Shown here: piece by piece, positions 25,660-45,475 of the stretch
Numbering within the stretch: position 1 is the first letter of the stretch
Layout: the number at the start of each line of letters is the position of its first letter
Source of the DNA: Schmidtea nova
Taxonomy: Eukaryota
Assembly (NCBI GenBank): GCA_044892505.1
Contig: CM097883.1
Coordinates: 216,380,001-216,444,000 of the forward strand
DNA: 64,000 nt
Reading direction: 5' to 3'
Position numbers and translations under genes: made by a program
Notes under the pieces: model-generated
What the model saw: the letters and a program-made list of their open reading frames with translations, nothing else
The model's database searches: none
Told to the model about the DNA's origin: nothing

Positions 25660-25734
25660 CTCTTTTATACATCGGTCAATACAGCTTGACACTTTTTATT
25701 TTACATAATTTATTTACACTTGGTTTCCGCACAT

Positions 25735-26796: not shown

Positions 26797-26909
26797 TTCT
26801 ATAATTACAGATAAAAAGAATATTTAATCATTTTTTATTTTTATTGTTTTTGATTATTTGTTAATTCATATTGTTTCTATACATTTTATTTACATGGTTA
26901 CTTCCTTCA

Positions 26910-28286
26910 TTACGCCAACCATCCTTTTCTGTCTGTTTTCTCATGCCTCTCCATCTCTATGTATAGCGTGTCTGCATATAGTCGCTCCCATAGGTTTTCT
27001 TTCCTTATAAACATTGGTTCTCCTGCTGCTAGTCCGCATTCTGTTGTTGGTTTTTCGCTCGTACTCGTATGTTTGTCTGTTTCAAAGAACTTTTCTACTG
27101 GTTTTCCCATACTTTTGATTCTTATAATGACTCCTACTTTCAAGGGCCATTCTATTAGGTCATCGTATTCTCCTTTACATAGCGAGAAAAATATTGACAC
27201 GTGTGTTCCTTGTCCTCTTCCGTCTCCATTTGGGTATACTTTCAATCTTATTTTAACCCCGTTTTTCCATAAATAAAATGGTGGGCTTATTACTGCTGTT
27301 TTAGTCATATTTCTGGCTTCTGCTAGTTTGTCTCTGAAATCTGTTATTTTCCATAAGTAAGGTGCGATTGGTAAGTCCCTTCTTTCGTCAATTTCTCGTA
27401 TTAATTGATTATATTGTATTTTCATTCCTTTTCCTAATTCTTCTATGGCTATTATTTTCTTTTCCATTCTTTCGCGAGTTAGTTCAAACTGCTCTCTTGT
27501 TTCTAGTAGTAAACTCATCATTATCTTATGTGATTCTACTTCTTTTTCTAATTTCTGGATTGTCTGTTCCGTTTCTTTTGTCGTTTCGTTTGTCATTTCC
27601 ACATGCGTTAGTGCTGCTTCTTCTAGGTGTTGTTTCATTGATTGCCGCGTCCGCTTTTCTTTGCATCCCTGTTTGTTATATGGACATTCTCTTGGTCTTT
27701 CGGTACATACTTTCCAATGTTCATGTAACTTTACTTCTTCTGTTATTTCGCAATTGTTTGGACAGTTACTTACATATTGTCTGCATACTTTCTCCTCTGT
27801 TATATTCAAGTGTTCCTCTTCGATTTTTCTCCTCGTTTCTCGAGTTTCACAATACTCGCATGCGATTTCTTCTTCTTTACATTCTTCCTTGTGTTGTTCT
27901 CTCTTCTTTAGAGTTATTGTCTGTTGGCATTTCTCGCATTCGGCTCTCTTTTCCTCGCATTTTTCCATATGGTTCTCCAGATTACTTATTTGTCCTTGCC
28001 ATGTACAAGGTGTATTTACGCACTCCGTTGTGGTGCTCATAATTTCTCTTTGGGTTGCTTTGTCCGTTCTGGTTTCGTCCAACACTATTCTTCCTTCCTT
28101 ACATTCTGGGCATGTTGTTATTCCTGTTGCATCTAATTCTTGTATACATTTTGTACATATTCTACATCCACATATCGTTTGTCTGGGTTCTCGTAGTAAA
28201 TTATTACATTTCCCGCAGGTGAGCCTCTTGCTCCATTTTCTGTTTTCTAGTCTCAAAATTTCGATTATTCGTTCTTCTCTGTCCAT
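26910..28286 (-). CDS. Intronless TRAF-family protein (RING, TRAF zinc fingers, coiled coil, MATH); most like the TRAF2/3/5 type
   Basis: RING CGKC...CGCRICTKC...CPEC; zinc fingers such as CTWQGQISNLENHMEKC and HWKVCTERPRECPYNKQGC; MATH YLWKITDF...SPPFY...YPNGDGRGQGTHVSIFF...GEYDDLIEWP. Confidence 0.92.
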   Translation of the reverse strand: MDREERIIEILRLENRKWSKRLTCGKCNNLLREPRQTICGCRICTKCIQELDATGITTCPECKEGRIVLDETRTDKATQREIMSTTTECVNTPCTWQGQISNLENHMEKCEEKRAECEKCQQTITLKKREQHKEECKEEEIACEYCETRETRRKIEEEHLNITEEKVCRQYVSNCPNNCEITEEVKLHEHWKVCTERPRECPYNKQGCKEKRTRQSMKQHLEEAALTHVEMTNETTKETEQTIQKLEKEVESHKIMMSLLLETREQFELTRERMEKKIIAIEELGKGMKIQYNQLIREIDERRDLPIAPYLWKITDFRDKLAEARNMTKTAVISPPFYLWKNGVKIRLKVYPNGDGRGQGTHVSIFFSLCKGEYDDLIEWPLKVGVIIRIKSMGKPVEKFFETDKHTSTSEKPTTECGLAAGEPMFIRKENLWERLYADTLYIEMERHEKTDRKGWLA

Positions 28287-28379
28287 TTTCTACAATAATA
28301 TATACATTCGACTTGTCATTTATTTTTGGTTTTTCTTGTTTTTTATTTTTACATATTTACAATTTTCCGCTTTATTTAT

Positions 28380-28736
28380 CTATGGCTCATTCGTTGAATC
28401 TGGTTCCGCTTCGTTGTTTAGTCTATTTATTACCCAACTCATCCATCCTTCTTCGGATTCTTCTCTTTCTCCTCGTGTTAAATGGTTTATTTCTATTGCT
28501 TGTCTTTGATTGATATTGCTTATATTTTGATTTTCTCTGGTGAGCTCGGTTATCACTCTTTGTTGTTCTTCTATTCTGTGTAATTGTTCGAAACAGTTGT
28601 TATAACTTTCTGATAATAACATTTGTCTTTCCGCTAATTGGTTCTGTAATGAGTTGACTGTTCGTACTAATAAATCACATTGTGCCTTCCATCTCATAGC
28701 CATAGTTATTTCAGTTGTTTCGTCTTGTTCGTTCAT
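28380..28736 (-). CDS. 118-aa coiled-coil accessory protein
   Basis: Intact ORF between pol and TRAF; AATTTAG-AAA-ATG context. Confidence 0.7.
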   Translation of the reverse strand: MNEQDETTEITMAMRWKAQCDLLVRTVNSLQNQLAERQMLLSESYNNCFEQLHRIEEQQRVITELTRENQNISNINQRQAIEINHLTRGEREESEEGWMSWVINRLNNEAEPDSTNEP

Positions 28737-28860
28737 TTTCTAAATTATATACATCGTTTACTTGCTTTTCTATCTTTTTACAATTTTTATAATATCGATA
28801 CCCATACTATTACGGTAATGCTTTGTTATTTACACTATTATTTACAGTCATAATCCGCCC

Positions 28861-31800
28861 CTATACCATCATTATCGTCTTTTCCTCGTATCGTTCTTCA
28901 TCTTCTATTTGTTTCCAGAATTCTTTACCTTTCGTTCTTCTTTGGAGTTCTTGCTGTATCTCTTCTGGTATTTCTATTCTTTGCTTCATAATTTTAATAT
29001 CTGGCCATTGTATGGCTGTCGCTTTGTTTCTCTTTCTGTATCTCCCATATATTATCATGCTTGTCGTCATTATCCCATATGCTATTAATATTCCTATACT
29101 GATTAATCCTATTACTGTTTTTCCACGGTTTGTTGCTTTGATTTTATTCTGATTCGCTTTTATCTCATTTTGGGTTTGAGCCTCTGGCTTCTTCTCCTTC
29201 TGTACTTGATTCTTGACTTTGTTCATTACTTCTTGTGTAGACCAATGGCGATTTAGTAGTTGTTTGACGTTATTTTCTTTTGTTCGGTTTTCCACGTTTC
29301 CTGGTTCGATCTGTTGTTGTAGTTTCTCTGAGATCTGATATAATCCGCATTCTGGTTTTTCTGAACCTTTTCTAGTGAAGGTACATATCGCGTATGTCTT
29401 ATTTACTTCCATTTTCTTTAATTCGACTTTTTCCTTATTCCCTGTTTCTTTACAGTGGGTTAGGTTGCCTTCTTCTCCTTCTGGGTTATGCTTTGTCCAA
29501 CATATTCCTTTCACTGTTTGATCGAGTCCTGTTAATGTCAGAGTTCTTTCTGTTTTGGTTAACTCTTCTTCGTCGAATTTCAGTATTTCTCCTTTTTGAA
29601 ATGTCTTACAATGCTCTATTCCCTCTTGGATTCCTTTCTCCCAGATACATATACTTCCTTCTTCATTCATTTGTATTTCTTGTATTTCGATTTCCTTGTT
29701 TGTTTGTGATTCGTCGCTTGTCTGAACTTGGTATTCCTTCCTTGGTTCGTTGTATGTTCCCCAGCATAGTTTGTTGCTGCTTGTTTTTCTTATTGTTATG
29801 GCCATTTGTTCTATTATTATTCCTCTGTCAAAACGTTTGGACATTGCTATTATTAACGCTATGCATACGCACTCTTGTTGGGGTGATGTTCTTTCTCTCG
29901 TGTTATTGGTGCTTTTCTCCCCTTCTCCTGGTTTATCCGTTGTGTTTCTTATCTGAGTTGCTGGTTGATCTATGGTGTTTTTGATTTCTTTCTTTGTTGG
30001 TTTTACTCTATACCATTCGAGTCTAGGCGTTTCGTATTTTTGACATACGACTGTCTTAGGTAGCCCCGACTTCTTTTCCTTTCCTATTATGCATATCCGA
30101 TGCATGATTCCTCTGTCCATCCCTTCTATTCGTACTATATCCTGGTCGGATTTTCTGATTATACATTTTAGTGGGTTATCTTTCCCAATTGGTTCATCCT
30201 CTCTATTCCAGCATATTTTCTCGACCTCCTGGACATTTACTATTTTTATCCCTGCTTGTAGGTTTGTTGCTTCTTCCCTATTGATTAACGTTAGTATTAT
30301 TGTTAGACCCAACCATTTTGAACTCTGCGGTAGGCTTCTGGTTCGCCTTTCATATTTTTTCTCTTCTCCTTTAATCTCTTTTATTTCCTTGTCTTCGTTG
30401 TTTATTCCTAGTTTTCCGCTTTTTGTTTCTTTCTTATTTGTTTCTTCTCGTGCTTTTTCTTCTAGTATTTCTACTCCATGGCTTGTATTATCTATATTTA
30501 GCCATTGGGTTGTTGATTTTCTTGGGTTTATCTTGCGTATCCATATAGCTGATAACGCGATTATTACTGGTATGGTCGCTGTTAATATTCCTAAGCCAAT
30601 TAGTTCTTTAATTTCTTTATTCTCGTCTGTTTGTATAGATTCGCTTTGGTTGAACATTATTCCGTATTGTCCCTTTAGTTTTCTCATTAATTGTTCTCGT
30701 TCCTCTTGTTTTCTTTTGACTTCTTTGATAACTTCTTCAGGTGTCCATTTTGCTTGAGGATCGGTTATTATTTTTTCTGCGTCCATTTGTTCATTCGTTT
30801 GGCTTAGTTCCTTGAATTCGAGTTTCCTTGCTACTCCTTTTGATGTCGCGTTTGCTGGTGTATAGTAGGTTTCGCATCTTTCTTGTTGGTTTCCTAGTGT
30901 GTTCATTTTTTCTATTGTACATACTTCATACTCGCTATTAAATTGTAGTTTTTCGATCCTGATTTCTTTATTTGTTTTTCTGCACTCTCTTGATTGTCTT
31001 CTTATATGTTTCTGGACTATTATCCAACATATTTCCAATGTTTTATTCTCTATTTTCCATAATGTTAGAGTTGCTGATGTCTTTCTCTCGGGTTTTGTCG
31101 TAACTTCCTGGCTTATTGGTTGTTTATTGCTTTTAAAGGTAGTGGTGTACTTCGGTTTTCCTTTGTTTCGTTGTTTCCTTTTATTTTTCCGTGTTAACGT
31201 TTTGGTTCTTGTTCCGGATGAAGTCGTATGTATTCCGCATTCTAGGTCGTTTATCGTTATCTGATCATTTTTCTTTACCAAACATATTTCGTAGGTTTGT
31301 TTACTTTCTAAACCTTTTATTTGAATCGTCGTTGTTCCTGTGTTTGTTCGACATTGTGGTGTCGTTCTTTTATTTACTTCTTTTTCGTACTTCCTCCAGC
31401 ATACTCCTTTCACATTTGGTTCTATCTCTTTTATTTCTAATGTTATGTTTACTTTCCGCTTGATTTGTTTATTTCTCTTCCTCGTTCTCCTTCGGAACTT
31501 TATTACCTCTCCAGGTTGGAATGTTTTACATTTTGTGGTACCTTTCTTGTTCCTCTCTTTCTCAAGTAGGCATAGTTTGTACATCTTGTCTGCTCTTACT
31601 TCGGATACTTTAATTACTTTGTTTGTTGTTGGCTTTCGACTTTTCCTTATTTCGTTTACGCCGATTTCTTCGTCATTCCTCGCCCAACATTTTATGTTAG
31701 TGTTCTGTGTATCTTCCACTTCTGTTATTGTCATAGTTTCAATTTCTATTCCTTCCTCTAATCGTTTTATTATTATTAGTATGAGTGCTAAGCATAATAC

Positions 31801-34800
31801 TTCCATTTGGTAAGACACTCTTTCGGTTTCGTTTGTGGCAACTCTTGCTTCGGGCCTCTTTATTGTAATTCGTATAGTTGGTGTTGTTTGCTTATCTATT
31901 GCCTGGGGTTTTTTGTTTTCTGTTCCCTGTGTCTCTGTTCTTCCACATTTTCCGAGGATGTAATCTCCTTTGGGTGACTGTTGTATTGTCATGGCTGCTT
32001 TAGGTGTTTGGTATTTTGCACATGCGATTGTGTTGTGTGATCTTGGATGCTTTTGTTTTCTAACGGTGCATATTTTGTACCAGGTATTTAGATCTAGGTC
32101 GTTGATCTCTATGATTTCTTGCTCGTGTTCTGAGATTCTGCAATCCATCGGGCTATTTTGTTCCGTGATTTTGTCCTTTTTCGACCAACATACTCGTTCG
32201 ATTCCCTCTGCGTTTTTTATTTGTATTATTGCCCTTTCTTCACATGTCATTCCCTGACTTGGATTAATTAACGTTATAATCATTGTTAATAATAGTAATT
32301 CTGGTTTGAAGAATGGTTTTATGGTTGATTTATAACCTGTTCTTTGGGTGTCATTTTTATCTCCTTGGTCGTTTTTTCCTTGTTCTCCATCTTCATCTCT
32401 TTGTTTTTCGTCTTCACTTTTCTTTTCTTCCTTGTCTCGTTTCTTGTCTTTTCTCTCGTTTTCCTCTTTATCGGGTGGTTCGTGATCGTTTGAATTTTCT
32501 GAGTTGTTACCGTCGTCACTATCTGTATTGTCATCTCCCCCTGGCTCGTCGAAAATGTCGTCCTCGACATTGATTTCTTCTATCAATTTTGCATATGCTA
32601 ATGTCGTTAGGTTACTTGCCTCAAATTCTTGTGTTTCTACCTGCTCCGGTATTACTTTGTTAGTGGATTTATATTCCAAGATTTCCTTTTTGGCCTTGAT
32701 CCAATTGTTGATGTATGTCTTCATCAATTCTTTCCATTTGCCTGTGTATTTTTCTTCTTTCGGGCTGGTTGTGATTCTTAGATCCTTTCTTTCCATAAAC
32801 ATCTTCAATATCTCTGGCCATTTATACGTTATTAGGGCACTTCTTATACACCAGTTCTGGTTATGTTCTGTAAACTCATTAATCCTGAAAGCTGGTTCGT
32901 TTGTATTCGGGTTGATCCACGTGAGTATTGATTCTGTTAGTTCGACATTGTGCATCATTGTCAATACACTGGGTTTCTTAATTGTTTTGGTTAGGTATTC
33001 TATTTCTTTCTGGTTTGAGACGGTTTTAATGAAACTGACCATTTCCCAATTGTGTGTTAATAATGCTACATCCAATATTGAATTATCTTTATCTGTTTTA
33101 CCTGTAAGTCCTGCACCTGCTTTGTATAGTTCTTCTAATACCTTTGTTTTCGTTTTGGCCCTTGCTGCAAATACCATAAGTGTATCTCCTTTCTCGTCTA
33201 CCCTATTCATATTGCTTCCGCAATTTAGCATTACTCGTGCAATTTCCATTACTTTTCTATCTTTGCCATTTCGTAAAGCTCTATGTATGGGCATTATTCC
33301 GTCCTTTGGTAGTAAAAATGTTACTGGCATCTCCTTTTTTATAGTCGTTATATCGTTGCCATTGTATGTTCCTTTTGCGTATGCGTGTACTTTTTCAACT
33401 AATGCGCCGAGTATTTCCAGTGCATGTTTACTATTCTCGAATTCCGGTAACAATTCTTTTGCTTTTTCTTGTATCGCATCTAGTCTAGCTTGGTATGGTG
33501 CTTCTGCTTTAAAGAGTGGTGTGAGTTTCTTGTTACTTTCTCTTTCTTTTTTCTCTAAAACCTGTTTGCATTTTTCGGGATGGTTTAAGATTTTTACTAA
33601 TTCCTCATATTCGCTTACTATCGTCTGGTATTTCTCGTTAAAATTGTTTATGTCTTTGTATGTTATTAGTTTATCAAGTGGTTTCGCACACCATTTCCTA
33701 ATCTTGTTGAATAAGGCATTCTTTTCTTTATCGAATTGATGTTCTTCTTCATTCTTTGTGATGTTTATGTTTCCTCTATCTAATAAGGTTAGTAATGTCT
33801 TCTGATCACAAGTAAATTTCAAAAGGTATCTTAACAGTGCGTTTTGTCCTTCGCTGTATACTTCGTTTATGTCTAAGACCCATGTATCATCTTCTGGTCG
33901 TTTCCATTTGACTAACTTACGGATCGTGTTGCATTTACCAATTTTGATTGCCTCTTTGATAATGTCTCCTTTAACTAGTTCGTCTATCTCCCAAGTGGAG
34001 TTAGCTATTATGTATTTCAGCATTGGTTGGTGAGAACTCCATATTACGTGATTTAGCACTGTTTTGTCTTCTCTATCTCGTTCTGTCCAACTGAAATGAG
34101 CTTTTATCAATAGATCTATCATTTCTTTATCTGCTTGGTGGATTGCGGCTGTCATTAATGGAGTTTCTTGTTCCCGATTCCCTACGTCCAAGTTTTGGTT
34201 TGTTTCTTTTGCGATTTTTAGGAATTCTTTTGCTCTTTCAATGTTTTTACACTCTATCGCATTATGTAAGGCTGGTTGTCCTCCTACATCTTTCAATAAG
34301 AGTATTTCAGGGATTTTTTCCAATAATTCAGAAATAATTGGTTCGGTTGGTAATCCTTGTGCGTAACGGCTAATTATATGTCTAATATCCCTTGATATGC
34401 CTGCTTCGTCTCTAACATGCCATCTTCCCATTATCTCTCTCGCCTTCAATATGATTTCTTTATTTCTGATTTCTTTTTGCCTTATTTCTGCTTTGTCGTC
34501 TTCAGTTGCATTAGCTCTGAGCATATTTATCCTGGCTGTTTGTGATCTAGTTATTATTCGATTTTCTGGTGTTGTAGTTATCGTTTTAGGCACCTTCTTA
34601 CATCTGCAGGTGTTTACATATATGGGTCGTATTAAGGGTCGATTTATTAGCTTAACTTTGACATTATTGTCCTTTTTGTATATAATTTCATAAGGTCCTC
34701 TTCCAGGTCTTTGGAGTTTCTTAACTGTTCCTGGTATTATTTCGGGAGTTTCTATTATCACCCAATCTCCTGGTTTTAGATCGTTCGCTTTAACATTTTT

Positions 34801-35136
34801 CTTCTGGTCGTGTAAGTCCTTATAACTTTCCTGATAAAATTTAATGTTGAGTTCTGCCGTTTTCCATATTTCCTGCATTCTTTCTTTGAATTTGGTTACG
34901 TAGTCGTCATCTTCCATATATTGCGATAATGGTGGCTGATACTCTAAATCTATGGGCATGTTGCATTCTCTTCCATACATAAGTTGAAATGGGCTTAGTT
35001 TTGTTGCTGCATGTATCGACATTCGGTATGCCATTAAACATAATTTTATGTATTCGTCCCAATCAGTCTGATGTCTGCTGACGTAATTTGATAACATTCT
35101 GATCAATGTACCATTGAATCGCTCCGTTTGTCCATT
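28861..35136 (-). CDS. 3' part of retroelement Pol: integrase C-half, ankyrin repeats and two FN3-like membrane modules
   Basis: NGQTERFNGTLIRML carries the catalytic E; GPY motif RPGRGPYEII; ankyrin-like units at ~34290-33030; repeated W...C...I-x-x-L...Y-x-I-C domains, signal-like segments and two TM helices. The first 23 aa of the ORF-track entry come from the Maverick TIR. Confidence 0.9.
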   Translation of the reverse strand, partial: NGQTERFNGTLIRMLSNYVSRHQTDWDEYIKLCLMAYRMSIHAATKLSPFQLMYGRECNMPIDLEYQPPLSQYMEDDDYVTKFKERMQEIWKTAELNIKFYQESYKDLHDQKKNVKANDLKPGDWVIIETPEIIPGTVKKLQRPGRGPYEIIYKKDNNVKVKLINRPLIRPIYVNTCRCKKVPKTITTTPENRIITRSQTARINMLRANATEDDKAEIRQKEIRNKEIILKAREIMGRWHVRDEAGISRDIRHIISRYAQGLPTEPIISELLEKIPEILLLKDVGGQPALHNAIECKNIERAKEFLKIAKETNQNLDVGNREQETPLMTAAIHQADKEMIDLLIKAHFSWTERDREDKTVLNHVIWSSHQPMLKYIIANSTWEIDELVKGDIIKEAIKIGKCNTIRKLVKWKRPEDDTWVLDINEVYSEGQNALLRYLLKFTCDQKTLLTLLDRGNINITKNEEEHQFDKEKNALFNKIRKWCAKPLDKLITYKDINNFNEKYQTIVSEYEELVKILNHPEKCKQVLEKKERESNKKLTPLFKAEAPYQARLDAIQEKAKELLPEFENSKHALEILGALVEKVHAYAKGTYNGNDITTIKKEMPVTFLLPKDGIMPIHRALRNGKDRKVMEIARVMLNCGSNMNRVDEKGDTLMVFAARAKTKTKVLEELYKAGAGLTGKTDKDNSILDVALLTHNWEMVSFIKTVSNQKEIEYLTKTIKKPSVLTMMHNVELTESILTWINPNTNEPAFRINEFTEHNQNWCIRSALITYKWPEILKMFMERKDLRITTSPKEEKYTGKWKELMKTYINNWIKAKKEILEYKSTNKVIPEQVETQEFEASNLTTLAYAKLIEEINVEDDIFDEPGGDDNTDSDDGNNSENSNDHEPPDKEENERKDKKRDKEEKKSEDEKQRDEDGEQGKNDQGDKNDTQRTGYKSTIKPFFKPELLLLTMIITLINPSQGMTCEERAIIQIKNAEGIERVCWSKKDKITEQNSPMDCRISEHEQEIIEINDLDLNTWYKICTVRKQKHPRSHNTIACAKYQTPKAAMTIQQSPKGDYILGKCGRTETQGTENKKPQAIDKQTTPTIRITIKRPEARVATNETERVSYQMEVLCLALILIIIKRLEEGIEIETMTITEVEDTQNTNIKCWARNDEEIGVNEIRKSRKPTTNKVIKVSEVRADKMYKLCLLEKERNKKGTTKCKTFQPGEVIKFRRRTRKRNKQIKRKVNITLEIKEIEPNVKGVCWRKYEKEVNKRTTPQCRTNTGTTTIQIKGLESKQTYEICLVKKNDQITINDLECGIHTTSSGTRTKTLTRKNKRKQRNKGKPKYTTTFKSNKQPISQEVTTKPERKTSATLTLWKIENKTLEICWIIVQKHIRRQSRECRKTNKEIRIEKLQFNSEYEVCTIEKMNTLGNQQERCETYYTPANATSKGVARKLEFKELSQTNEQMDAEKIITDPQAKWTPEEVIKEVKRKQEEREQLMRKLKGQYGIMFNQSESIQTDENKEIKELIGLGILTATIPVIIALSAIWIRKINPRKSTTQWLNIDNTSHGVEILEEKAREETNKKETKSGKLGINNEDKEIKEIKGEEKKYERRTRSLPQSSKWLGLTIILTLINREEATNLQAGIKIVNVQEVEKICWNREDEPIGKDNPLKCIIRKSDQDIVRIEGMDRGIMHRICIIGKEKKSGLPKTVVCQKYETPRLEWYRVKPTKKEIKNTIDQPATQIRNTTDKPGEGEKSTNNTRERTSPQQECVCIALIIAMSKRFDRGIIIEQMAITIRKTSSNKLCWGTYNEPRKEYQVQTSDESQTNKEIEIQEIQMNEEGSICIWEKGIQEGIEHCKTFQKGEILKFDEEELTKTERTLTLTGLDQTVKGICWTKHNPEGEEGNLTHCKETGNKEKVELKKMEVNKTYAICTFTRKGSEKPECGLYQISEKLQQQIEPGNVENRTKENNVKQLLNRHWSTQEVMNKVKNQVQKEKKPEAQTQNEIKANQNKIKATNRGKTVIGLISIGILIAYGIMTTSMIIYGRYRKRNKATAIQWPDIKIMKQRIEIPEEIQQELQRRTKGKEFWKQIEDEERYEEKTIMMV

Positions 35137-36241
35137 AGTAGACAGAAGTGTGCACCATGAGTCATCGCAGAACAAAGGAAATGACGTCATCGATGAGTCA
35201 TCCATGACCCCCCCGATGACTCATAAATGACGTCATCGATGACTCATAAATGACGTCATCGATGACTCATAAATGACGTCATCGATGACTCATCGATGAC
35301 TCATCGATGACTCATCACATGACTCATCGATGACTCATCGATGACGTCATCGATGACTCATTTCAAATTTGAATTTTATGACGTCATCGATGACTCATTT
35401 CAAATTCAAATTTTAAATTTAAATTCCCAAGGGTCCGATAAGGTCAGACCTTCAAACAAGGGTATCATTCGAAAGGTCTTTTAAAGGTCTATCCAATGGT
35501 CATACCCTCGAGGGTGTATGGAGGATCCTTAACCTTCAAAGGGGTCAAAAACCTTCAACCTTTTACAATCCTTATAATATACATATCAAACAAAAGGTAA
35601 TTGGGAGGTAAGTAAGATGGTCATACCCTCGAAGGTGTATGGAGGATCCTTAACCTTCAAGGGGTCAAAAACCTTCAACCTTTTACAATCCTTATAATAT
35701 ACATATCAAACAAAAGGTAATTGAAGGGTGCACACAATGGTCATACCTTCCAAGGTCTATGGTGGGTGCTCAACCTTCAAAGGGTACAAAACAAGGATAT
35801 AAAGGTAAGTACGGTTTTCTTAATGACTCATCAGTATGACTCATTGGGATGACTCATTAGTATGACTCATCAATATGACTCATCAGTATCACTCATTGGT
35901 ATGACTCATCAGTATGACTCATCAGTATGACTCATCAGTATGACTCATCAGTATGACTCATCAGTATGACTCATCAGTATGACTCATCAATAAATATTAA
36001 CAAAGACAATGCAATCCATGTGCAAAGAAACAAAGACAATGCAATCCATGTGCAACGAAACAAAGACTAATGAAATATAATATTTAATAATAATAATTTT
36101 GTACAGAGATAAATTGTGTGTGTGTGTGTTTAAGACAAATCACAGTACTCATTGAACGCGCGTGAAACGCGCGTTCTTCTTCCTTGTTTTATAAGACAAA
36201 TCACAGTACTCATTGAACGCGCGTGAAACGCGCGTTCTTCT
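35137..36241 (+). repeat. Left TIR (at least 1105 bp) with internal tandem arrays
   Basis: Reverse complement of 51834-52916, differing by one extra 23-bp unit and a 7 versus 8 C run. Contains 11-13 bp TGACTCA/TGACGTCA arrays, ~120-bp direct repeats and two ~58-bp repeats. Confidence 0.95.
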
Positions 36242-36258
36242 TCTTCCCTTGTTGTTTA

Positions 36259-36295
<37 letters not shown>

Positions 36296-36299
36296 TTAT

Positions 36300-36902
36300 T
36301 TATTTATAAATATATTGTTGCGAACGTGTACAAAATTTGGATTCAAAATTATTACTACTAGGAATATTATTCATAGGAACATTATTTACAGGAATTTTAT
36401 TCTTATTAATATTCTCTAACCTTATCGATGTTGCCAATATCAAGATCATTATTAATATGAATAAACTTATGTAATGTAAAACTATCGATGTTTTTTCGCT
36501 TTCAACTGTCTGATTTTGGTATCTGACTTCATATTGTTTTTTAACAATTGTTTGATTCGTACATTTCAAACTTTCAACAATTTTCATCATTATTTTCAAC
36601 ATTATTTTTTCCATTTCTTTATTAATCAAATCATTTTTTGAAGGACATTGTAATTTTATTTTGCTAATTATTTTTTCAATATCATTATTATTAATCAAAT
36701 TATTTTTTGAAGGACATTGATCACATTGTAATTTTATTTGATTGCATTCAGTGTTTGAGTAAACACATATTTCATTATAACTCGCACAAGTACTATCTTC
36801 TCTTCTAAACGGATGGGTTGATTGGCAAGCTTCTAAAGCCTGTTCTCCATCAGTATTTTGAACACACAATAAAAATACAAACATGGTTATAAGCAGTTTC
36901 AT
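36300..36902 (-). CDS. Maverick cargo: signal peptide, Cys-rich ectodomain and TM (~200 aa)
   Basis: MKLLITMFVFLLCVQNTDG from ATG 36902; internal duplication IKLQC(DQC)PSKN(N/D)LIN; TM IVLHYISLFILIMILILATSI. Confidence 0.7.
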   Translation of the reverse strand: MKLLITMFVFLLCVQNTDGEQALEACQSTHPFRREDSTCASYNEICVYSNTECNQIKLQCDQCPSKNNLINNNDIEKIISKIKLQCPSKNDLINKEMEKIMLKIMMKIVESLKCTNQTIVKKQYEVRYQNQTVESEKTSIVLHYISLFILIMILILATSIRLENINKNKIPVNNVPMNNIPSSNNFESKFCTRSQQYIYK

Positions 36903-36967
36903 TTTAAATAAATACAAAATAAAATAAAAAACTAAATTTGTTCATAGTAAAATTTATTAAATAACAA

Positions 36968-37384
36968 TTAGGCGTATCGTGCATTATCAACTCTCCAAAT
37001 TGGAGTTGTCACTTCCTTTTTATCAACCTTGTATCCTTGAATGATTATCGTAACGAACCAGTGTTCTTGATCAATGAAATCGATTGTTTGATAAGCATTA
37101 TGGAAACGAGTCTTCCTGTTATTGATATACATCGTTTCTTTACAAATTAAATTCACATTGATTTTTGAAAATACTCTATTTAGTGCGATAATATCCTCTT
37201 TATCAATAATAATAGATAGACTATCATACAACGACTTTGTTAATTTTACGGGATAAGATAAGCGAAACGGAATTTCTTCTACCAAGAAATAGATTCGGCT
37301 ATCATAATACATCTGGACTGGTTTCACCTCAGTCGGGAATAATCTTTCTTCGCTGACATCATAACCTCGTTTTCGTGAATCCAT
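36968..37384 (-). CDS. Maverick hypothetical protein (~138 aa, probable start MDSRKRG)
   Basis: Intact ORF; the region upstream of it is conserved in element B. Confidence 0.6.
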   Translation of the reverse strand: MDSRKRGYDVSEERLFPTEVKPVQMYYDSRIYFLVEEIPFRLSYPVKLTKSLYDSLSIIIDKEDIIALNRVFSKINVNLICKETMYINNRKTRFHNAYQTIDFIDQEHWFVTIIIQGYKVDKKEVTTPIWRVDNARYA

Positions 37385-37927
37385 TTTTATAAATTGTGAC
37401 AAATTTGTAGAAATGACTTTGTATTTATAGTGAGGACTGGATGCCTTTGTCCAATCACAATCATGCATTTGTATTGCACACGTTATACATGTCTTTGTTG
37501 TAAGTGTGTGTGTGTTGTATATGTTCAAGTAATAAGCTTTTGCATATAAAAACCATAACAAAAGATGTACTGATAGTAAGGGTCTGTAAGTGGATAAAAT
37601 ATTTATTTATATCACAATAATTTATTTTACAATAATTTTTTTTATAAAAAATACTATTTTTAACCTTGGTAAATAAAAAGTTTAATAATTACTCAAAGTT
37701 AAAATAATTAATTAAATTCATAATAATAATTTAAAGTTAAATAAAAAATTATTAATAACTATTACTAAAAACTATTAAAAAACTAAAACTATTTCTTAAA
37801 AAACTGTTACTTAAAAAACTAAAAAACTAATACTAAAAACTAATAAAAACTAAAACTGAAACTAAAAACATTTATTAATATGAAAAACCTAAAAAATCAC
37901 TGTTTACAAATACACACAAATTGATAA

Positions 37928-38476
37928 TCAATGTTCTTCAGGAACTCGGTGACATTCGTCACAATCTGGAGATTCGGGAGACTCCATCGGCTCATCGGAT
38001 TCGATTGGATATGGCCCATCTAGAGTTGGGCAATCAGAATGAGCCGGACAATCTGTAGAATCCATCGATTGATCCGGAGTTGAATTTGGCCATGGCTCCT
38101 TGATATCTTCTTCCTCAATTGTTTCCAGCTGCGAATCGAATTCCTTCAATGCGTTTCTGAGAACCCAAATGTGGTATTTTCGGATCCTCTCGACACAATG
38201 ATCGCATTGATAAGCGCATAATATATGCTCAGCAATGACGGGCAAATCATTGTGGATATTGGCGATATGATCCAAAATTATTTTATTGAGATCGATGCCG
38301 GTCAGCATTTGAATCTTGTACGGCAGAATTTCTGGTGCCGTGTATGCCAAGGTAGGCATTAATTTCGGGAAGATTTCTTCGAGCTTGCCCAGGACCACGT
38401 TCATCAGTTTTCCTGAAAAAGAAATAATATTAAATTTGAAAAAAGATTAATTAAAATCTTTACCATTTTTAATCAT
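37928..38476 (-). CDS. Maverick hypothetical protein with a CxxxCxxC motif; exons 38476-38464 and 38412-37928
   Basis: A 51-nt GT-AG intron joins MIKNG in frame to KLMNVVLG; CAYQCDHC; S/P/D-rich tail. Confidence 0.6.
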
Positions 38477-38670
38477 ATTTTCTTCTAAGCACATTTTTAA
38501 TTCTAAATTATGAGAGAATGTTCTTAGTATATATACGATAGAAACACACATCATGTACGAAATGAACAACTTTCAACCAATAAGAATAAAGTATGCACAA
38601 CATGTCTTTATTCTATCGATACACACTCGACCAATCAGAATCGTGCATTTCCATTGCATGAATATTGCAG

Positions 38671-39138
38671 TCATGAGTCACATGTTAGTATGAAATCAAC
38701 AAAGGCTTTATCTTCTATAATTGATTTTATATCGTTAATAATATTATCAACTATATTAGTATAGTCTTTATTTTTTAATCCTAATATGACTACTTTACCA
38801 CTAGCAAAAATATTGACACACATTGGATTATATTTTGTATATCTTAAAGCTGGAAATAATTCTGGTTCATAAACACATGGAATCAATTTAGATAACTCAT
38901 TTAAATTACAAATAAATCCTAAATCTGCAGTCACAGTTATCGATTGTATTGTTAAATCGTGAGACTTTACTTTTTCATCACTAATAAATTCCTTGCATCC
39001 CATTATTCTATATCTGCCTGTCTTAAAGTATATTATTGGGTATTTTCCACTTCTATCTACAATTTGCTGTGGTTTCCCAGTTGGAAATATCATGTGCGAC
39101 ACATCTGTCTTACCCTTGTAATTAATGTTTCTAATCAT
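38671..39138 (-). CDS. TATA-binding-protein-like protein (155 aa)
   Basis: YEPELFPALRY...NIFASGKVVILGLK matches the TBP second-repeat signature YEPELFPGL...LIFxSGKVVxTGAK. LTIQSITVTADL and IIYFKTGRYRIMG match the inter-repeat strand and the first repeat. Confidence 0.82.
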   Translation of the reverse strand: MIRNINYKGKTDVSHMIFPTGKPQQIVDRSGKYPIIYFKTGRYRIMGCKEFISDEKVKSHDLTIQSITVTADLGFICNLNELSKLIPCVYEPELFPALRYTKYNPMCVNIFASGKVVILGLKNKDYTNIVDNIINDIKSIIEDKAFVDFILTCDS

Positions 39139-39224
39139 TATTAAAAATATTTTAAATCTAACAACAAAGAGATAATTAATATTTTAATCAATATAAACAA
39201 TAATACTAATAAATAATTACAAAC

Positions 39225-39848
39225 ATGGAATTAAGAAATGATGCAGTTTATCAAATTGTCGGTCCGAGCGGGAGCGGAAAAACTTTATTTGTTTGTAAAT
39301 TATTACAATCTAAATTATTCAAATCAAAATTTAATAAAATTTATTGGCATAGGGGTGCTGACGACGAAAGCGGAATGACTCAAGATCAGTTTTGTAAAAT
39401 AAAAATGACAATCATAAAAGGTTTCGATAAAAACTGGTCATCTAGATTAAGAGAAGGGGATGTGATTATTATTGATGACTTGTATCAAGAAGCAAATAAA
39501 GAAAAGGATTTTAATAATTTATTTACGAAAATCGCTAGACACAAAGGTGTTACAGTTATTTTTATTACTCAGAATTTATTTCATCAGGGTGGTAGTCATC
39601 GAACTCGTAATTTAAATGTTCAATATCTTGTTGTTTTTAAAAATCCTCGTGATGCAACAGTTATTGATTTTCTGGCAAGACAAGCTTATCCTTCTAATCG
39701 GAATTTCTTGATTGATGCGTTTCAGGATGCTACAAAATCTCCTCATGGATATCTTTTCTTGGATTTTACGCAACAATGCAGTGATGATTTAAGAGTTAGA
39801 ACTGATATTTTTAACAAGGAAGGAGCCATGGTTTATAAACAAAGTTAA
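39225..39848 (+). CDS. Maverick DNA-packaging ATPase (FtsK-HerA/A32 type)
   Basis: Walker A GPSGSGKT, Walker B IIIDDL, ARHKGVTVIFITQN, VVFKNPRD. Confidence 0.93.
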   Translation: MELRNDAVYQIVGPSGSGKTLFVCKLLQSKLFKSKFNKIYWHRGADDESGMTQDQFCKIKMTIIKGFDKNWSSRLREGDVIIIDDLYQEANKEKDFNNLFTKIARHKGVTVIFITQNLFHQGGSHRTRNLNVQYLVVFKNPRDATVIDFLARQAYPSNRNFLIDAFQDATKSPHGYLFLDFTQQCSDDLRVRTDIFNKEGAMVYKQS

Positions 39849-39868
39849 ATATATTTACAGTAGTAATC

Positions 39869-40405
39869 ATGTTAATGAAATCTAGAGTAAAGTTTGAACG
39901 CTTGATAAAGGCAAGAAAAACAATGAAGAAAACAAAGAAAACAAAGAAAACAAAGAAATCAGTTTCGAAACCCGTTTCTAAAACAAGTTATACTCCTTCG
40001 AAAAAACTAATTATGGATAATTTTCCCAAACAAAATCAAATTCCCCCTATTTTGAAATCTAATCCGAAACAAATACATCATCGGAGTTTTCCGTTTTTTA
40101 ATGCATTGCTAAAAGCCCCCAGTGCTAGAAGAATGGGTATTCTTCAGTCGTTTCCCAATTACGTCATTGATGATTTACTCGCTATTTTAATTAAAGTCGT
40201 ACGAGGTAAAATGAATCTAACTCCTTCTAATCGTCGGGTTTTGAACAAGCATAAAAAACCATTGTTATCACTTGTAAAAACAAAAAATAAAAAACTTATG
40301 CGTAAAATAATATATAAACAACAAGGAGGGTTTATTGCTGCATTATTACCCCTAGCTTTATCGTTATTAGGTGGTGCTGGTTTATTGGGAAAAAGAACGT
40401 CATAA
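39869..40405 (+). CDS. Basic core protein with an adenovirus pX/mu-like C-terminus
   Basis: Very K/R-rich; ends KQQGG|FIAALLPLALSLLGG, similar to adenoviral pX MRGG|xLPxLIP. Confidence 0.7.
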   Translation: MLMKSRVKFERLIKARKTMKKTKKTKKTKKSVSKPVSKTSYTPSKKLIMDNFPKQNQIPPILKSNPKQIHHRSFPFFNALLKAPSARRMGILQSFPNYVIDDLLAILIKVVRGKMNLTPSNRRVLNKHKKPLLSLVKTKNKKLMRKIIYKQQGGFIAALLPLALSLLGGAGLLGKRTS

Positions 40406-40408
40406 ACA

Positions 40409-40621
40409 ATGGGTCAATCATTACCTAATTTAAATTTAAACTTTAAATCTTCTTGTTGTAATGGAGAAGATCTGGACGAACCCGAAAGACGAAGCCGGTT
40501 TCGGTGGAGTCGAAAAGTTAAGGAAAAAAGTACAGAAGTCGAAACAACAGACACAAAGCTGGTTATCGGGGCAACTTGCATACAGTCTAAACAAACCGAT
40601 GCTGAAACGGTTTCCAACTAG
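40409..40621 (+). CDS. Possible small myristoylated protein overprinted on the integrase 5' end
   Basis: MGQSLP...SSCC; ATG 3 nt after the upstream stop; overlaps integrase in another frame. Confidence 0.4.
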   Translation: MGQSLPNLNLNFKSSCCNGEDLDEPERRSRFRWSRKVKEKSTEVETTDTKLVIGATCIQSKQTDAETVSN

Positions 40622-41505
40622 ATCATATAAAACGTATAGAATCAATGATTTGTGGCAAATGGATTTGATGGAAATGATTCCGTATTCAAAAATTAACAAG
40701 GGATACAAGTATATTTTAACATGTATTGATGTTTACAGTCGTTTTGCGCGGGCAATCGCAGTAAAATCGAAATCTGGTAATGATATGGCAATCGCGATCA
40801 AAGCAATGATCAAAAAGGATCGTCCAACAAATTTACAAACCGATTTGGGTAAATTTTAATTATAATTTATTGATTTAATATTTTTTAGGTAAGGAATTTT
40901 ACAACAGTAAAGTCAAGGAAGTTATCAAGGGAATCAATCATTATTCGGTATTCTCGCAATTCAAAGCCGCTCATGTCGAGAGATTTAATCGTACATTACG
41001 AGATCGGCTCAAAAAATATTTTGTACATCAAGGTAATAAAACATGGATTAATGTTTTACCACAAATGATCCATAGTTATAATCATTCTGCTCATCGAGGT
41101 ATAAATGGCAGGAAACCTGCAGAAGTAGTTAATACTGAAAATATCGTGAGTGATACAATAATCAAGAAACCGAAATATAAAATAGGTGATCATGTTCGAA
41201 TTAGTAAAATTAGTGCATCGCCATTCATTAAAAATTTTGATAGTAATTGGAGTGATGAGGTATTTAAAATATCGAAGGTCAACACAGTCCAGAATCCTGT
41301 CATGTATACTATTTCTGACTCTGATAACAATATAGTCAGTGGGAAATTCTATGAACAAGAATTACAAGTTATACCTCCACCTACAATATTTAGAATTCAA
41401 AAAATATTGAAAACTAAAATGGTAGGTAAGGATAAACAATACTATGTCAAATGGCATGGATATAAAGAACCATCATGGATATCGTCAAAAAACATAGTAA
41501 AATGA
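40461..41505 (+). CDS. Maverick retroviral-like integrase with C-terminal chromodomain; exons 40461-40848 and 40889-41505
   Basis: WQMDL (D1); QTDLG|KEF (D2, joined across a 40-nt GT-AG intron); HVERFNRTL (E); chromodomain YYVKWHGYKEPSWI. Confidence 0.93.
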
Positions 41506-42518
41506 ATTTTTATATGATTCTACCTAGCAATAGTTGCCCGAATATCCATCCAGATAATACCGCAAGTAAATTCATGGTCAATTTGCAAAATCCTATTTAT
41601 TTACAAGGAAATTGGGAAGTTGCTCTATTGGATTTTACATTTGTTTACCAACCTTTTCCTTATTATAGTCAATGTAAAATTTTTTACAATAAAATAAGAA
41701 CGACTGTTGCATATGCATTTTTCTCGATATATAATGATAGTGGCGAGCTTAATGTTCCAACTCACACTATTGATCCAGATATCGAAATGCGGTATAGAAG
41801 TGGCAGAATTCTTCTCACATGTAATTTTCTTCCTTATACAATTACATTTAATAATCTTGATGATGCAAAACGAATGGGAAGTAATAAACTGACATTCACA
41901 TGTAATGAAGAAGAATGTGAATTCAGAGTTTTGCAAAAAGCTGGTAGCAAAGATGAAGAAGTATTTAATTTCAGTATATCTTATAATAGAGATGAACGAC
42001 ATGTATTCACGTTCAAGAATGACTTGTATATAACGCATCTAGATGAATTACAGAAATATATTTCCGATAATTGTTCGGATATTTTTACTATTGTTGAATT
42101 AAATAAATTGTTCAAATTCAAACTAAAAGAAAATATTTCTAATGTGAGATTTGATAAATACCTTGTCCATACATTGGGATTAGATAAGGATACATTTAGC
42201 GGTAAAAATATCGTTTCTGGTGTTCGTCAACCGAAAATATCTAAGCTTCATCAGCAATTATTCATATACAGTAACATTATCGAACCGATAATTGTTGGAG
42301 ATTCTTTGGTTCCTTTACTGAAATCGGTATGGATCGAAAAATACGAGGTAGATGAAATTGTTCAAATACAAATAGAAAATCCAATGTATTTATCGCTTTC
42401 GAATTCATGTATAAACAATATAGAAATAAATATCAGGGATGATATTGGAAGATTAATAAACTTTCCAAAAGATTCAAAAACTCATTTAACTCTACATTTT
42501 CGAAAAAACGATGAGTAA
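41502..42518 (+). CDS. Maverick minor capsid (penton-like) protein
   Basis: FYMILPSNS...NTASKF...L-x-G-x-WEVAL at the N-terminus and LFIYSNIIEP...GD...LL...Y...I.INIRDD.G...F...THLTLHFRK at the C-terminus; ATGA overlap with the integrase stop. Confidence 0.88.
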   Translation: MNFYMILPSNSCPNIHPDNTASKFMVNLQNPIYLQGNWEVALLDFTFVYQPFPYYSQCKIFYNKIRTTVAYAFFSIYNDSGELNVPTHTIDPDIEMRYRSGRILLTCNFLPYTITFNNLDDAKRMGSNKLTFTCNEEECEFRVLQKAGSKDEEVFNFSISYNRDERHVFTFKNDLYITHLDELQKYISDNCSDIFTIVELNKLFKFKLKENISNVRFDKYLVHTLGLDKDTFSGKNIVSGVRQPKISKLHQQLFIYSNIIEPIIVGDSLVPLLKSVWIEKYEVDEIVQIQIENPMYLSLSNSCINNIEINIRDDIGRLINFPKDSKTHLTLHFRKNDE

Positions 42519-42891
42519 TCCCGATATAGTTTCTTTGTACAGTAATAGCCAAACTGGTGGCGAATTACCGTATTTTGTAGGTAAACAGTATGGATCAGGT
42601 TGGTTGAAAACTATTGGTAGATTTGCACTTCCAATACTTAAGCGATTAGGTAGTTTTGGATTCAATACTGCCAAGGATGTTATCATGAAAGATAATAAAA
42701 TATTACCATCATTGAAAACAAATGCTTTGGCCGCAGTTAATAAAGCTATACCTACTGTAACAAAAATGATTCCTTCAATTACAAATATGTTTACAAAAAA
42801 TGAACCTGAACCTGTACCAGTAGGACCAAGACGTAAACGAAGACGTATAAACAAACGAATGAAAGGTCATGGAACTATATTTGAAGAATGA
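42511..42891 (+). CDS. Small virion protein with protease-site-like motifs and an amphipathic helix (pVI-like)
   Basis: QTGG and QYGSG motifs, WLKTIGRFALPILKRLG helix, basic tail PRRKRRR; lies between the minor and major capsid genes. Confidence 0.7.
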   Translation: MSNPDIVSLYSNSQTGGELPYFVGKQYGSGWLKTIGRFALPILKRLGSFGFNTAKDVIMKDNKILPSLKTNALAAVNKAIPTVTKMIPSITNMFTKNEPEPVPVGPRRKRRRINKRMKGHGTIFEE

Positions 42892-44108
42892 TTTGCGGTA
42901 AATCTGAATTATGTATTTTTGATCGACCAAGCCCCCAAGCAGTTATTGAATATGGGGTGTTTGAAGATGTGTTTCCAATGAATTCTATTACAGATAGTAG
43001 AAATGATGTTGAATTTTACATTAATGGATCGGCAACCGAATATTTGGATTTGAACGATACGTTATTATCCGTTACGGTCAAAGTTGTAGATAAAGATAAA
43101 AATAAATTAGTTGATGCGAGTGATGTAGTACCTAATAATTACTTGTTTCATACACTTTTCAAAGATGTGATTCTTGGATTTAATAATATAAAAATCGAGG
43201 GTGGAAACAATACATATGCACACAAGGCAATAATCGAAACTATTTTAAATTATACTAGTGATTCAAAAGAAACTTGTCTTACTCCAATGGGATATGGTGC
43301 AAGCGACGATAGAAAAAAGTGGATCAAGGGATCGAAACTTTTTAACATGTGTTCATCATTACAACTTGATTTTATGGATCAACCTAAATACTTACTTCCC
43401 GGAGTTAATGTACATATTAGATTGAAGCGATCTGATTCTGCATTATCACTGAAATCGGCAACTGGGAAACCAATACTCCAATTAGTAGACGCTAAATTAA
43501 TGGTAAGAAGAGTTCGGTGTGAATCTTCAGTTTTGGCCGGTCATCAAATTGGTTTAAATAGCAAACATGCAATTTATCCGATAAAATCCAAAGAAATAGT
43601 TTCGTTTGCTATTGGGAAAGGTGCATCGTCATTTTACAAGGAGCAAATATTTGGAGATAGAAGAATGCCTAATTTCATTCTTGTGGCTTTTCAAACTGAA
43701 AATCAATATAACGGATCATATGCTGAATCTTCATCTTCATTCAAACACTTTAATGTAACTTCATTATCATTATCGAAAAATACCGATTATCGAGAAACTT
43801 ATACTCAAGATTTTGAAAATGATAATTTTAGTGCCACATATATGCAAAGTCTTGTCCGAAATTTAGGATATTTGGATAAAAACTTGAATTGTGGTATAAG
43901 TCTGGATGAATTTAAAGCAAAATATCCATTCTTTACATTTGTTCTGGCTCCCGATTTCGATTTGAATCAAAGTCAAATCCCACAAAACGGTAATTTAAGG
44001 CTAGATATAAAGTTTGCAAAACCCATTGATGAACCGGTTCATGTAATTATATATGGATTGTTTGAAAATGAAGTACAAATTACTGCCAATCGAACAGTAC
44101 TGGTTTGA
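42888..44108 (+). CDS. Maverick major capsid protein (double jelly-roll)
   Basis: SELCIF...Q, VEFYING...YLDLNDT.L, KYLLPGV..HIRLKRS, GNLRLDIKFAKP; 406 aa. Confidence 0.92.
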   Translation: MICGKSELCIFDRPSPQAVIEYGVFEDVFPMNSITDSRNDVEFYINGSATEYLDLNDTLLSVTVKVVDKDKNKLVDASDVVPNNYLFHTLFKDVILGFNNIKIEGGNNTYAHKAIIETILNYTSDSKETCLTPMGYGASDDRKKWIKGSKLFNMCSSLQLDFMDQPKYLLPGVNVHIRLKRSDSALSLKSATGKPILQLVDAKLMVRRVRCESSVLAGHQIGLNSKHAIYPIKSKEIVSFAIGKGASSFYKEQIFGDRRMPNFILVAFQTENQYNGSYAESSSSFKHFNVTSLSLSKNTDYRETYTQDFENDNFSATYMQSLVRNLGYLDKNLNCGISLDEFKAKYPFFTFVLAPDFDLNQSQIPQNGNLRLDIKFAKPIDEPVHVIIYGLFENEVQITANRTVLV

Positions 44109-44158
44109 GCAGAGCTCAAACAGTATAAATAACCAAAGTTATTATTATTATTATAATT

Positions 44159-44535
44159 ATGGAGTAAGTTTTTAATTGAATAATTATTTATTTTTAATTA
44201 GTTCTATTCAGGTATTACAACAAGGTAAAAAACTATTGGGAAACCAATTTCTTGGAGTTTTTCCGTTAGATAAAATTCCTTATTTGAAAATGAATCAAGC
44301 CATCATTGTAAATACTCACACTTCTACTTTGGGCGGTGAACATTGGATTGCGGTTTACGTGAAACCGGATCGAATACATGTATTTGATCCCTTTGGATAT
44401 TATTATCCAAATTTACTTGTTCGAAAATTGCAAACTATTGGTAAACCTATTGTGTATAATAGAATTCGGTATCAACATCCATTAACAATCACTTGTGGAC
44501 AACATTGCCTTGCATGGCTAAAATCTATGTTATAA
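44159..44535 (+). CDS. Adenain-like cysteine protease; exons 44159-44163 and 44202-44535
   Basis: Catalytic H (GEHWIAV), D (FDPFG) and C (TCGQHC). A 38-nt GTAAGT...TTAG intron gives the start MDSIQVL. Confidence 0.9.
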
Positions 44536-44567
44536 ACAATTTAGTTTAATAAATGTTATTGTAAAAA

Positions 44568-44969: not shown

Positions 44970-45475
44970 ATGTATTATTCGTGTTTTATTATTATTAATA
45001 TTAATATTATTAATATTTTTATAAACTTGCAGAATTCACATCCAATTTGCAGATTAACATCCATCTAGCTATACTTTTCGATAATTATAAAGAAATTGCA
45101 TGCAGGCACGCATGCAGACACTCAATTATTTCACATATAAATCGACTTGGGTGTATTCACATCTGCATCTACACCTATAAGATATTTCATAAACACTTTA
45201 GTCACGTAGTGTCTTTGTATCGTTGCATCCGACATGCATCGTGCAATATAACAAAGACATGATTCATACTTGGTGAGTGAATTATTAACACACATACTTG
45301 GTGAGAGATTTTTAACATACATACTCAGTGTGCACACATACTTTTTCTACCCTATCTCGCTTGTGATTGGCTCGTGAATAAAGTTTGTAATAAACGTGAT
45401 ATATACTATATGTTTTCATTATTTCGTCACAATTTAAACAATCTTTTAAAAATTTCAAATTATTATTATTAAACA

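Follow-up and report, generated by a model that had tools for sequence, protein, structure and literature searches.

Why would the TIRs of a Maverick be filled with consensus sites for bZIP proteins, and what might read them? The question is raised by Maverick A, which lies in the 64,000-nt stretch of DNA analysed here (the window) together with an end of a related element, B, and an end of a third, C; all TIR comparisons below are between element ends within this 64-kb window. Maverick/Polinton elements were reportedly described by Kapitonov and Jurka in 2006 and by Pritham in 2007.

An apparently intact Maverick inside a giant retroelement

Maverick A spans 17.8 kb (35137-52916). It is flanked by a perfect 6-bp target-site duplication (TSD) of the Maverick/Polinton kind, its termini (AGTAG...CTACT) show the short AG/AGT terminal repeat of Mavericks, its TIRs align over at least 1083 bp, inside the Maverick range of 100-1500 bp, and it carries the packaging ATPase and adenovirus-type protease expected of such an element. 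Every Maverick/Polinton feature tested is present, the exception being the jelly-roll capsid fold, which was not confirmed. The 17.8-kb length, long TIRs, 6-bp TSD, AG...CT ends and two gene blocks, and likewise the set of protein-primed family B polymerase, integrase, ATPase and protease, agree with published accounts of these elements (PMC8097293, PMC10748475). The end motif, AGTAGA, differs in its sixth base from the (AGT)2 given there for vertebrate Mavericks (PMC8097293). The ends are laid out as follows:

35131-35136 (+): left TSD, TCCATT; the identical six bases follow the right end
35137-36241 (+): left TIR, at least 1105 bp; the right copy runs into an N gap
35137-35156 (+): terminal 20 bp, starting AGTAG, identical in A and B
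35157-35398 (unstranded): outer bZIP-site array, 12 ATGASTCAT and 6 ATGACGTCAT, mostly 11-12 nt apart
35401-35822 (unstranded): middle block rich in AAGGT/ACCTT, holding 2.5 copies of a 120-bp repeat (35494-35791)
35823-35991 (unstranded): inner bZIP-site array, 13 units of 13 bp, with intact ATGACTCAT in 12
35999-36076 (+): three AACAAAGAC words and TGCA words in a 30-bp repeat; they recur in element B and, separately, 5' of two internal genes
36155-36230 (unstranded): ACGCG four times on each strand, within a repeat of two copies that closes the inner side of the TIR
50985-51833: assembly gap of 849 N, cutting the right TIR
51834-52916 (-): right TIR, with 12 TRE in the 13-bp array (52088-52252) and 11 TRE plus 5 CRE in the outer array (52677-52896)
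52917-52922 (+): right TSD, TCCATT
20199-20700 (+): end of element B, with the 20-bp terminus as in A, 3 TRE and 1 CRE, an AAGGT block and four AACAAAGAC words

The terminal 20 bp shared by A and B are likely the origin core and the integrase end. Tandem repeats in the Maverick A region have periods of 11, 13, 23, 30, 37 and 120 bp. The word AACAAAGA(C), which we take to be Sox/HMG-like, recurs at 37499 (-), 45250 (+), 39164 (+), 35999-36067 and 20399-20674; it is present in the inner blocks of the A and B TIRs and 5' of internal genes, with TGCA, CCAAT and CACACA words, and the recurrence possibly reflects a shared promoter grammar. An Rfam scan of 35000-53000 gave 0 matches and so no structured RNA, and a search for look-alikes of the TIR in phages gave no match.

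The element is inserted in the integrase of a giant Ty3/gypsy element in which Pfam identifies ankyrin repeats, a TRAF gene and, within the gag ORF, a fusion protein of mononegavirus type. Such a layout has been described for planarian Burro elements (PMC6431247), and on this likeness the genes adjoining Maverick A are retroelement genes. The original prediction had the arrays possibly driving neighbouring genes, a part that was not supported: the flanking ORFs belong to the retroelement, and the closest gene of the host, SF3B3, has its start at 16971 (-), 18 kb from Maverick A. In a FastTree phylogeny with 34 named references, no free-living flatworm among them, the sister branch of this SF3B3 consists of parasitic flatworms (SH-like support 100), a placement that indicates a free-living flatworm as host. 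The four bZIP sites of element B (20219-20305) lie 3.2 kb upstream of the SF3B3 start, which is the sole plausible host target in the window.

Several further observations concern this setting. The Burro-like element occupies ~21700-35136 and 52917-64000 (-). Its gag is accompanied by the fusion glycoprotein and its pol is spread over several frames; it also has an ORF with ankyrin and FN3-like parts and a complete TRAF gene (26910-28286). In other animals TRAFs signal to JNK, and by analogy a link between this TRAF gene and the AP-1 arrays of Maverick A is possible. The insertions appear to be nested, with Maverick B (20199-21700) followed by the retroelement (from 21700 onward) and the related Maverick A (35137-52916) inside the retroelement. 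Two ORFs at 3569-3991 (+) and 22213-22809 (-) are distantly related (26-29% identity) and are probably parts of retroelement LTR regions.

Arrays of TRE and CRE words fill the TIRs

The original prediction of dense arrays of AP-1 and CRE sites was borne out in most of its detail. The left outer array (35157-35398) holds the predicted 12 TGA(C/G)TCA (TRE) and 6 TGACGTCA (CRE) words, TREs beginning at +21 and CREs at +45 counted from the left terminus; 13 of the 17 centre-to-centre gaps have the claimed 11-12 nt and the other four measure 23-25.5 nt. The 12 TGACTCA said to lie in 13-bp units are found in 13 units at 35823-35991, the core of unit 6 being changed. Mirroring in the right TIR, also claimed, is seen as 11 TRE plus 5 CRE and 12 TRE, and the reduced form reported for element B as 3 TRE plus 1 CRE at 20219-20305. 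The words are indeed the TRE and CRE consensus (PMC7412551).

In total the left TIR has 24 TRE and 6 CRE and the right TIR 23 and 5, or 58 sites per element, and sites cover 276 of the 1105 bases of the left TIR. Without exception, the 62 sites at the element ends (A and B) are extended by an A before and a T after, giving 50 ATGASTCAT and 12 ATGACGTCAT; all 12 CREs are thus ATGACGTCAT, and they are interleaved with the TREs. The orientation of TREs in the outer array is 10:2. When the left TIR was compared with 1000 dinucleotide shuffles, none reached its 24 TRE (mean 0.35) or its 6 CRE (mean 0.05), and 30 extended sites stand against 0.06 expected. At the end of element B, 4 extended sites stand against 0.01 expected (0 of 1000 shuffles), and the 60,245 background bases of the window hold 2 TRE, no CRE and no extended site. 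The arrays are a real, non-chance feature. As dinucleotide shuffles ignore tandem duplication, the tests of core against spacer given below are the stronger ones.

Two further claims stood in part. A copy-number difference between the two TIRs does appear, as a single 22-nt indel comprising one TRE and one CRE; the alignment has 0 mismatches in the other 1083 bases, but the indel sits beside a C-run and the right TIR abuts the 849-N gap, so that it may be an assembly error. AGGTCA-like half-sites do lie between the arrays in the forms GGGTCA (2) and TGGTCA (3), but AGGTCA itself occurs only once, and the word enriched in the middle block is instead AAGGT/ACCTT (17 in the TIR vs 1.7 expected; 5 in B vs 0.7), with AAGGTCA-N-ACCTT common to A and B. 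A nuclear-receptor response element is a weak reading of this block: exact AGGTCA is found once in the middle block of A and once in B, never paired, although a factor that binds single half-sites is conceivable. In addition, an ATG in the left TIR opens an outward frame of 2114 codons (28861-35205, minus strand) that runs into the downstream retroelement ORF; since every site contains ATG, this frame is probably due to chance.

Sites are conserved relative to their spacers

Because tandem duplication can inflate the count of any word, we compared the core with the spacer. The sites of A-left and B are separated by 14 distinct spacers of 2-22 nt, and across these the core shows two bZIP geometries plus one mutant, and nothing else. 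Relative to the commonest unit, the 13-bp array differs at 1 of its 117 core and 8 of its 52 spacer positions (Fisher p 3.7e-4); when distinct variants are counted, the numbers are 1 core vs 4 spacer (p 0.034). Of the first 56 bases of A and B, 51 agree; the 5 that do not are confined to the 15-nt spacer that separates the TRE at +21 from the CRE at +45. Deeper in, the two ends align only in short patches while the order of blocks is kept: bZIP sites, AAGGT, AACAAAGAC/TGCA. The sites thus appear conserved relative to the spacers, in a pattern that resembles turnover under selection for binding, as judged from two related ends with few independent changes.

The third Maverick end, assigned to element C by position only, lies at 2824. 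Its terminus, on the minus strand, reads AGTAGT, and a related polymerase precedes it by 700 bp. The 31-bp array of this end (2555-2824) contains 0 TRE, 0 CRE and no ATGAC, and is made of the words TAATTA, AGGTGTG and CTTTG(G/A)T. A Maverick end that lacks TRE and CRE implies that replication and integration do not generally require these sites, and the comparison suggests that TIR arrays are family-specific.

Two observations on element B belong here. It has a RING ORF (C3HC4; 20773-21117, minus strand; Pfam E 9.4e-10) that is absent from A and that we take to be IAP-like. B (21539-21606) and A (37519-37586) share a non-coding stretch of 68 nt at 82% identity, which in A lies upstream of the ORF at 36968-37468.

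Genes of Maverick A read towards the TIRs

The gene content of Maverick A is as follows:

36300-36902, 36968-37468 and 37928-38404 (-): three left-arm ORFs, all reading towards the left TIR
38671-39138 (-): TBP-like gene, 155 aa (Pfam TBP E 7.8e-15; model pLDDT 94)
39139-39224: 86-bp gap from which two gene blocks diverge
39225-39848 (+): packaging ATPase (Pfam Pox_A32 E 1.1e-6)
40461-41505 (+): retroviral-type integrase with chromodomain, in two frames (Pfam rve E 4.4e-9, Chromo E 4.6e-5)
41475-44108 (+): three ORFs of 347, 126 and 406 aa
44206-44535 (+): adenovirus-type protease (Pfam Peptidase_C5 E 2.4e-6)
46731-50708 (+): protein-primed family B polymerase, 66% identical over 692 aa to the window ORF 12-2120

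The polymerase ORF gave no direct match to DNA_pol_B_2; its relative at 12-2120, which by position is the polymerase of element C, matches that family with E 6.6e-32. Tandem repeats of 27, 24, 43, 35 and 33 bp, several units of which contain ATCGAT, were observed at 45842-47071, before and inside the polymerase start. The ORFs of 347, 126 and 406 aa are presumably minor capsid, core and major capsid proteins, candidates by position and resemblance. No Pfam match was found for the capsid candidates, the minor capsid one being searched by Pfam alone; there was no relevant PDB sequence match and no phage match for a capsid candidate, and its single-sequence structure model reached pLDDT 32. Among the left-arm ORFs, the one at 36300-36902 has a weak DUF match only (Pfam), and searches assigned no family to those at 36968-37468 and 37928-38404, the one weak relative found (P0216, E 9.6e-5) being itself without a Pfam family.

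The TBP-like protein is better defined. With its structure model as query, the top 44 Foldseek matches are TBP chains, and all those listed with E <=0.001 are TBP. Of 95 sequence matches, 82 are close (E <=2.7e-15), mostly to short proteins, and these 82 close relatives form a separate family. A profile search with the TBP-like alignment gave 0 loci in a set of genome contigs that excludes eukaryotic, viral and metagenome contigs, and TBP is not mentioned in excerpts of two Polinton papers (PMC11161782, PMC10748475).

Within the integrase, a 40-nt stretch at 40849-40888 (GT..AG, 93% AT) has the length that accounts for the frame change, and we read it as a predicted intron. This explains the two frames better than a broken integrase, which we rejected, and the element is read as young and apparently intact. 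Besides this one the scan gave 8 candidates, some of them certainly false; candidate short AT-rich GT..AG introns were noted at 44164-44201, 38413-38463, 45653-45704 and 50710-50764. Together, the integrase intron and the TBP-fold gene make it appear that the element uses host Pol II.

All sizeable genes of Maverick A read from the 39139-39224 gap towards the TIRs. Among ORFs of at least 40 aa in 35137-37700, just one reads inward, a frame of 47 codons within the array. Distances to the start codons are 0.9-3.2 kb from the left inner array and, for the polymerase, 5.4 kb from the right one. A role of the arrays as proximal promoter was rejected, as no element gene starts there. Since no gene reads inward from the left TIR, any enhancer would work at 0.9-11 kb.

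A proposed landing array for host Jun/ATF dimers

ATGAC is probably the optimal AP-1 half-site; flanking bases are reported to matter, and CREB1 may favour G before TGACG. On balance we favour a reading in which the TIR arrays are landing sites for host bZIP proteins of Jun/ATF type and enhance, from a distance, the Pol II genes that the element carries; which protein binds, that it enhances and what signal induces it are what we infer from the sequence. The TIR would be a modular cis-regulatory region of Maverick A, in which a host dimer from the Jun/ATF (AP-1) group of bZIPs reads ATGAC half-sites that overlap (TRE) or abut (CRE). Slippage would have multiplied the sites, and selection on the element would have preserved the core. 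When host AP-1 rises, as on wounding, stress or differentiation, dimers would load on both ends and open the chromatin of the integrated copy, and the arrays would then enhance internal Pol II promoters over a long range, 0.9-3.2 kb inward on the left.

The two geometries that occur in the arrays, TRE and CRE and no others, are the two that AP-1 proteins accept (PMC5349851, PMC7412551). Jun heterodimers read both (PMC7412551), and the affinity of AP-1 proteins for the CRE form is just a little lower (Kim and Struhl 1995, quoted in PMC5349851). Because TRE and CRE are two arrangements of one half-site, both read by AP-1, a single class of Jun/ATF dimer suffices. For the same reason the cAMP/CREB input that the CREs had been taken to imply need not be assumed, AP-1 proteins binding ATF/CREB sites as well (PMC5349851). 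Planarians have jun and fos orthologues with a link to the wound response, and their wound genes are subject to modulation by JNK (PMC4055413); planarian Polintons, silenced by PIWI and piRNAs, gain H3K4me3 and RNA during differentiation (PMC8532177). The host of Maverick A is probably regenerative. Excerpts of PMC11410931, PMC9849279 and PMC10558129, which include planarian chromatin work, contained no reference to AP-1 or bZIP.

A binder encoded by the element itself was sought among its own products. A Pfam scan of 14 element ORFs found no bZIP domain, and a scan for the basic-region motif followed by heptads found none in the six frames of the window. The unassigned left-arm ORFs could encode an array binder, and the 849-N gap in the right arm could leave room for a hidden short gene.

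Alternative explanations

In adenovirus ITRs the origin core is followed directly by sites for host NFI and Oct-1, and the polyomavirus origin is stimulated by AP-1 sites. With these precedents, host bZIPs might bind the arrays mainly as auxiliary origin factors that assist the terminal protein-polymerase at the start of protein-primed replication, or might keep the ends accessible to excision, a possibility that we regard as unlikely and that is compatible with an enhancer, the primary function being what differs. It gains from the position of the first TRE (+21) and CRE (+45), whose distance from the terminus is equal in A and B despite the changed spacer, from genes that point towards the TIRs and not away from them, and from baculovirus hrs, which are both origins and enhancers (PMC13513840). 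An origin helper would, however, need one or two sites and not 30, and the 13-bp array lies 690-850 bp from the end; moreover, the element C end has no such sites and B manages with 4.

TBP binds TATA DNA and not ATGAC dyads, a point that bears on whether the repeats merely resemble AP-1 sites and are bound by an element-encoded protein (for replication, packaging or viral transactivation): the sole DNA-binding accessory protein identified in Maverick A has the TBP fold. We give this explanation little credence. The ORFs at 36968-37468 and 37928-38404 without a family, and the part of the right arm hidden in the 849-N gap, leave space for such a protein, but the bZIP motif is absent from every frame, and tolerance of both the 7-bp and the 8-bp geometry is a known property of bZIP proteins (PMC5349851).

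About as improbable is a neutral minisatellite or hairpin end, in which slippage and fold-back would have multiplied a palindromic seed and the AP-1/CRE match would be incidental. The outer array does fold strongly as single-stranded DNA (-84.1 kcal/mol, z -13.4), tandem arrays are common to Maverick A and the C end, and fold-back at the dyad centre could convert TRE to CRE. The 13-bp array, with the same core, nevertheless does not fold (z +1.5). Reshuffled units of the outer array fold as well in 102 of 200 cases, and when site orientation is randomised the array folds as well or better in 193 of 200, against an actual TRE orientation of 10:2; on these three grounds selection for a hairpin was rejected. 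Conservation of core over spacer likewise argues against neutrality.

Finally, a decoy by which amplified extrachromosomal copies titrate host AP-1 and so dampen apoptosis or immune signalling, or a silencer by which repressive bZIPs of ATF3/JDP2 type quiet the element, is highly improbable: 58 sites per element do exceed an enhancer's need, ATF3-containing dimers also bind TRE and CRE (PMC5349851) and the RING ORF of element B, if IAP-like, hints at apoptosis control, but the high copy number that titration calls for is without evidence and the other motif blocks in fixed order fit a composite regulatory region better.

Relation to known systems

Maverick A differs from known Mavericks in having a TIR filled with bZIP consensus arrays and a TBP-like gene. 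It also has predicted short introns, whereas intact vertebrate Mavericks are intronless (PMC8097293). In C. elegans, Polinton_CE_TIR repeats, which are largely Polinton TIR, are likewise associated with putative transcription-factor sites (PMC11414722); that passage, on trans-splicing, names neither a factor nor an array (PMC11414722). Our literature search found no prior report of AP-1 arrays in Maverick/Polinton TIRs; Repbase and the founding papers of 2006-2007 may already mention such repeats.

Viral counterparts include baculovirus hrs, on which Landais et al. (2006) is said to be earlier work. Like the arrays, hrs are repeated cis-elements with clustered CRE/TRE words said to recruit host bZIPs (PMC13513840), and the number of words in such clusters correlates with enhancer strength (PMC13513840). 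In contrast to Maverick A, hrs are scattered in a circular genome, with 30-bp palindromes bound by viral IE1, and each holds 2-13 degenerate CRE-like and 0-2 TRE words (PMC13513840 and its Table 2). Maverick A is an integrating element whose terminal repeats contain 28-30 perfect sites, and a search of its ORFs identified no co-activator of viral type. That the arrays are true hrs was rejected: ~30-bp imperfect palindromes with an EcoRI core in ~72-bp repeats are absent, and the likeness is one of analogy only. That viruses enlist host bZIPs by way of repeated CRE/TRE words has a precedent in baculovirus hrs; the place, purity and density of the Maverick A arrays are new.

Adenovirus ITRs are short, with single sites, and the early genes read inward from them. 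Maverick A resembles them as a protein-primed linear genome with a short conserved end followed by sites for host transcription factors, and differs in a TIR of more than 1.1 kb, multimerised sites and genes that read outward. Adenovirus ITRs also contain Sp1 sites (PMC11946086). The CRE repeats of the HTLV-1 LTR and the Meq/Jun sites of Marek's disease virus are further cases in which viral CRE/TRE tie expression or reactivation to host bZIPs; unlike Maverick A, these viruses have their own bZIP or co-activator and a small number of sites adjoining a promoter (PMC7412551, PMC11946086).

Implications

A literature search found no report on what activates Mavericks, and Maverick particles were unobserved as of PMC8097293. 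The arrays suggest that Maverick A may respond to wound and stress signals of its host, and a TIR made of consensus AP-1/ATF sites points to a candidate trigger for Maverick activity. This can be checked in existing wound and knock-down data, the host belonging to a group with JNK in the wound response (PMC4055413) and Polintons held by PIWI (PMC8532177). Planarian reporters have suffered from low expression, the CMV promoter having given no signal (PMC13563047); if the array is an enhancer, it would be a candidate strong native regulatory part for them.

More broadly, and in our own estimate rather doubtfully, Maverick families may partition host cell states by swapping the transcription-factor arrays of their TIRs, much as retroviral LTRs do. 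A and B would be wired to AP-1, so that injury or regeneration wakes the element and its own TBP-like protein then serves the late genes, and C would use another array. If this is true, TIR arrays would predict when and where any Maverick reactivates, and would offer a handle on the trigger of Maverick activity and particle formation.
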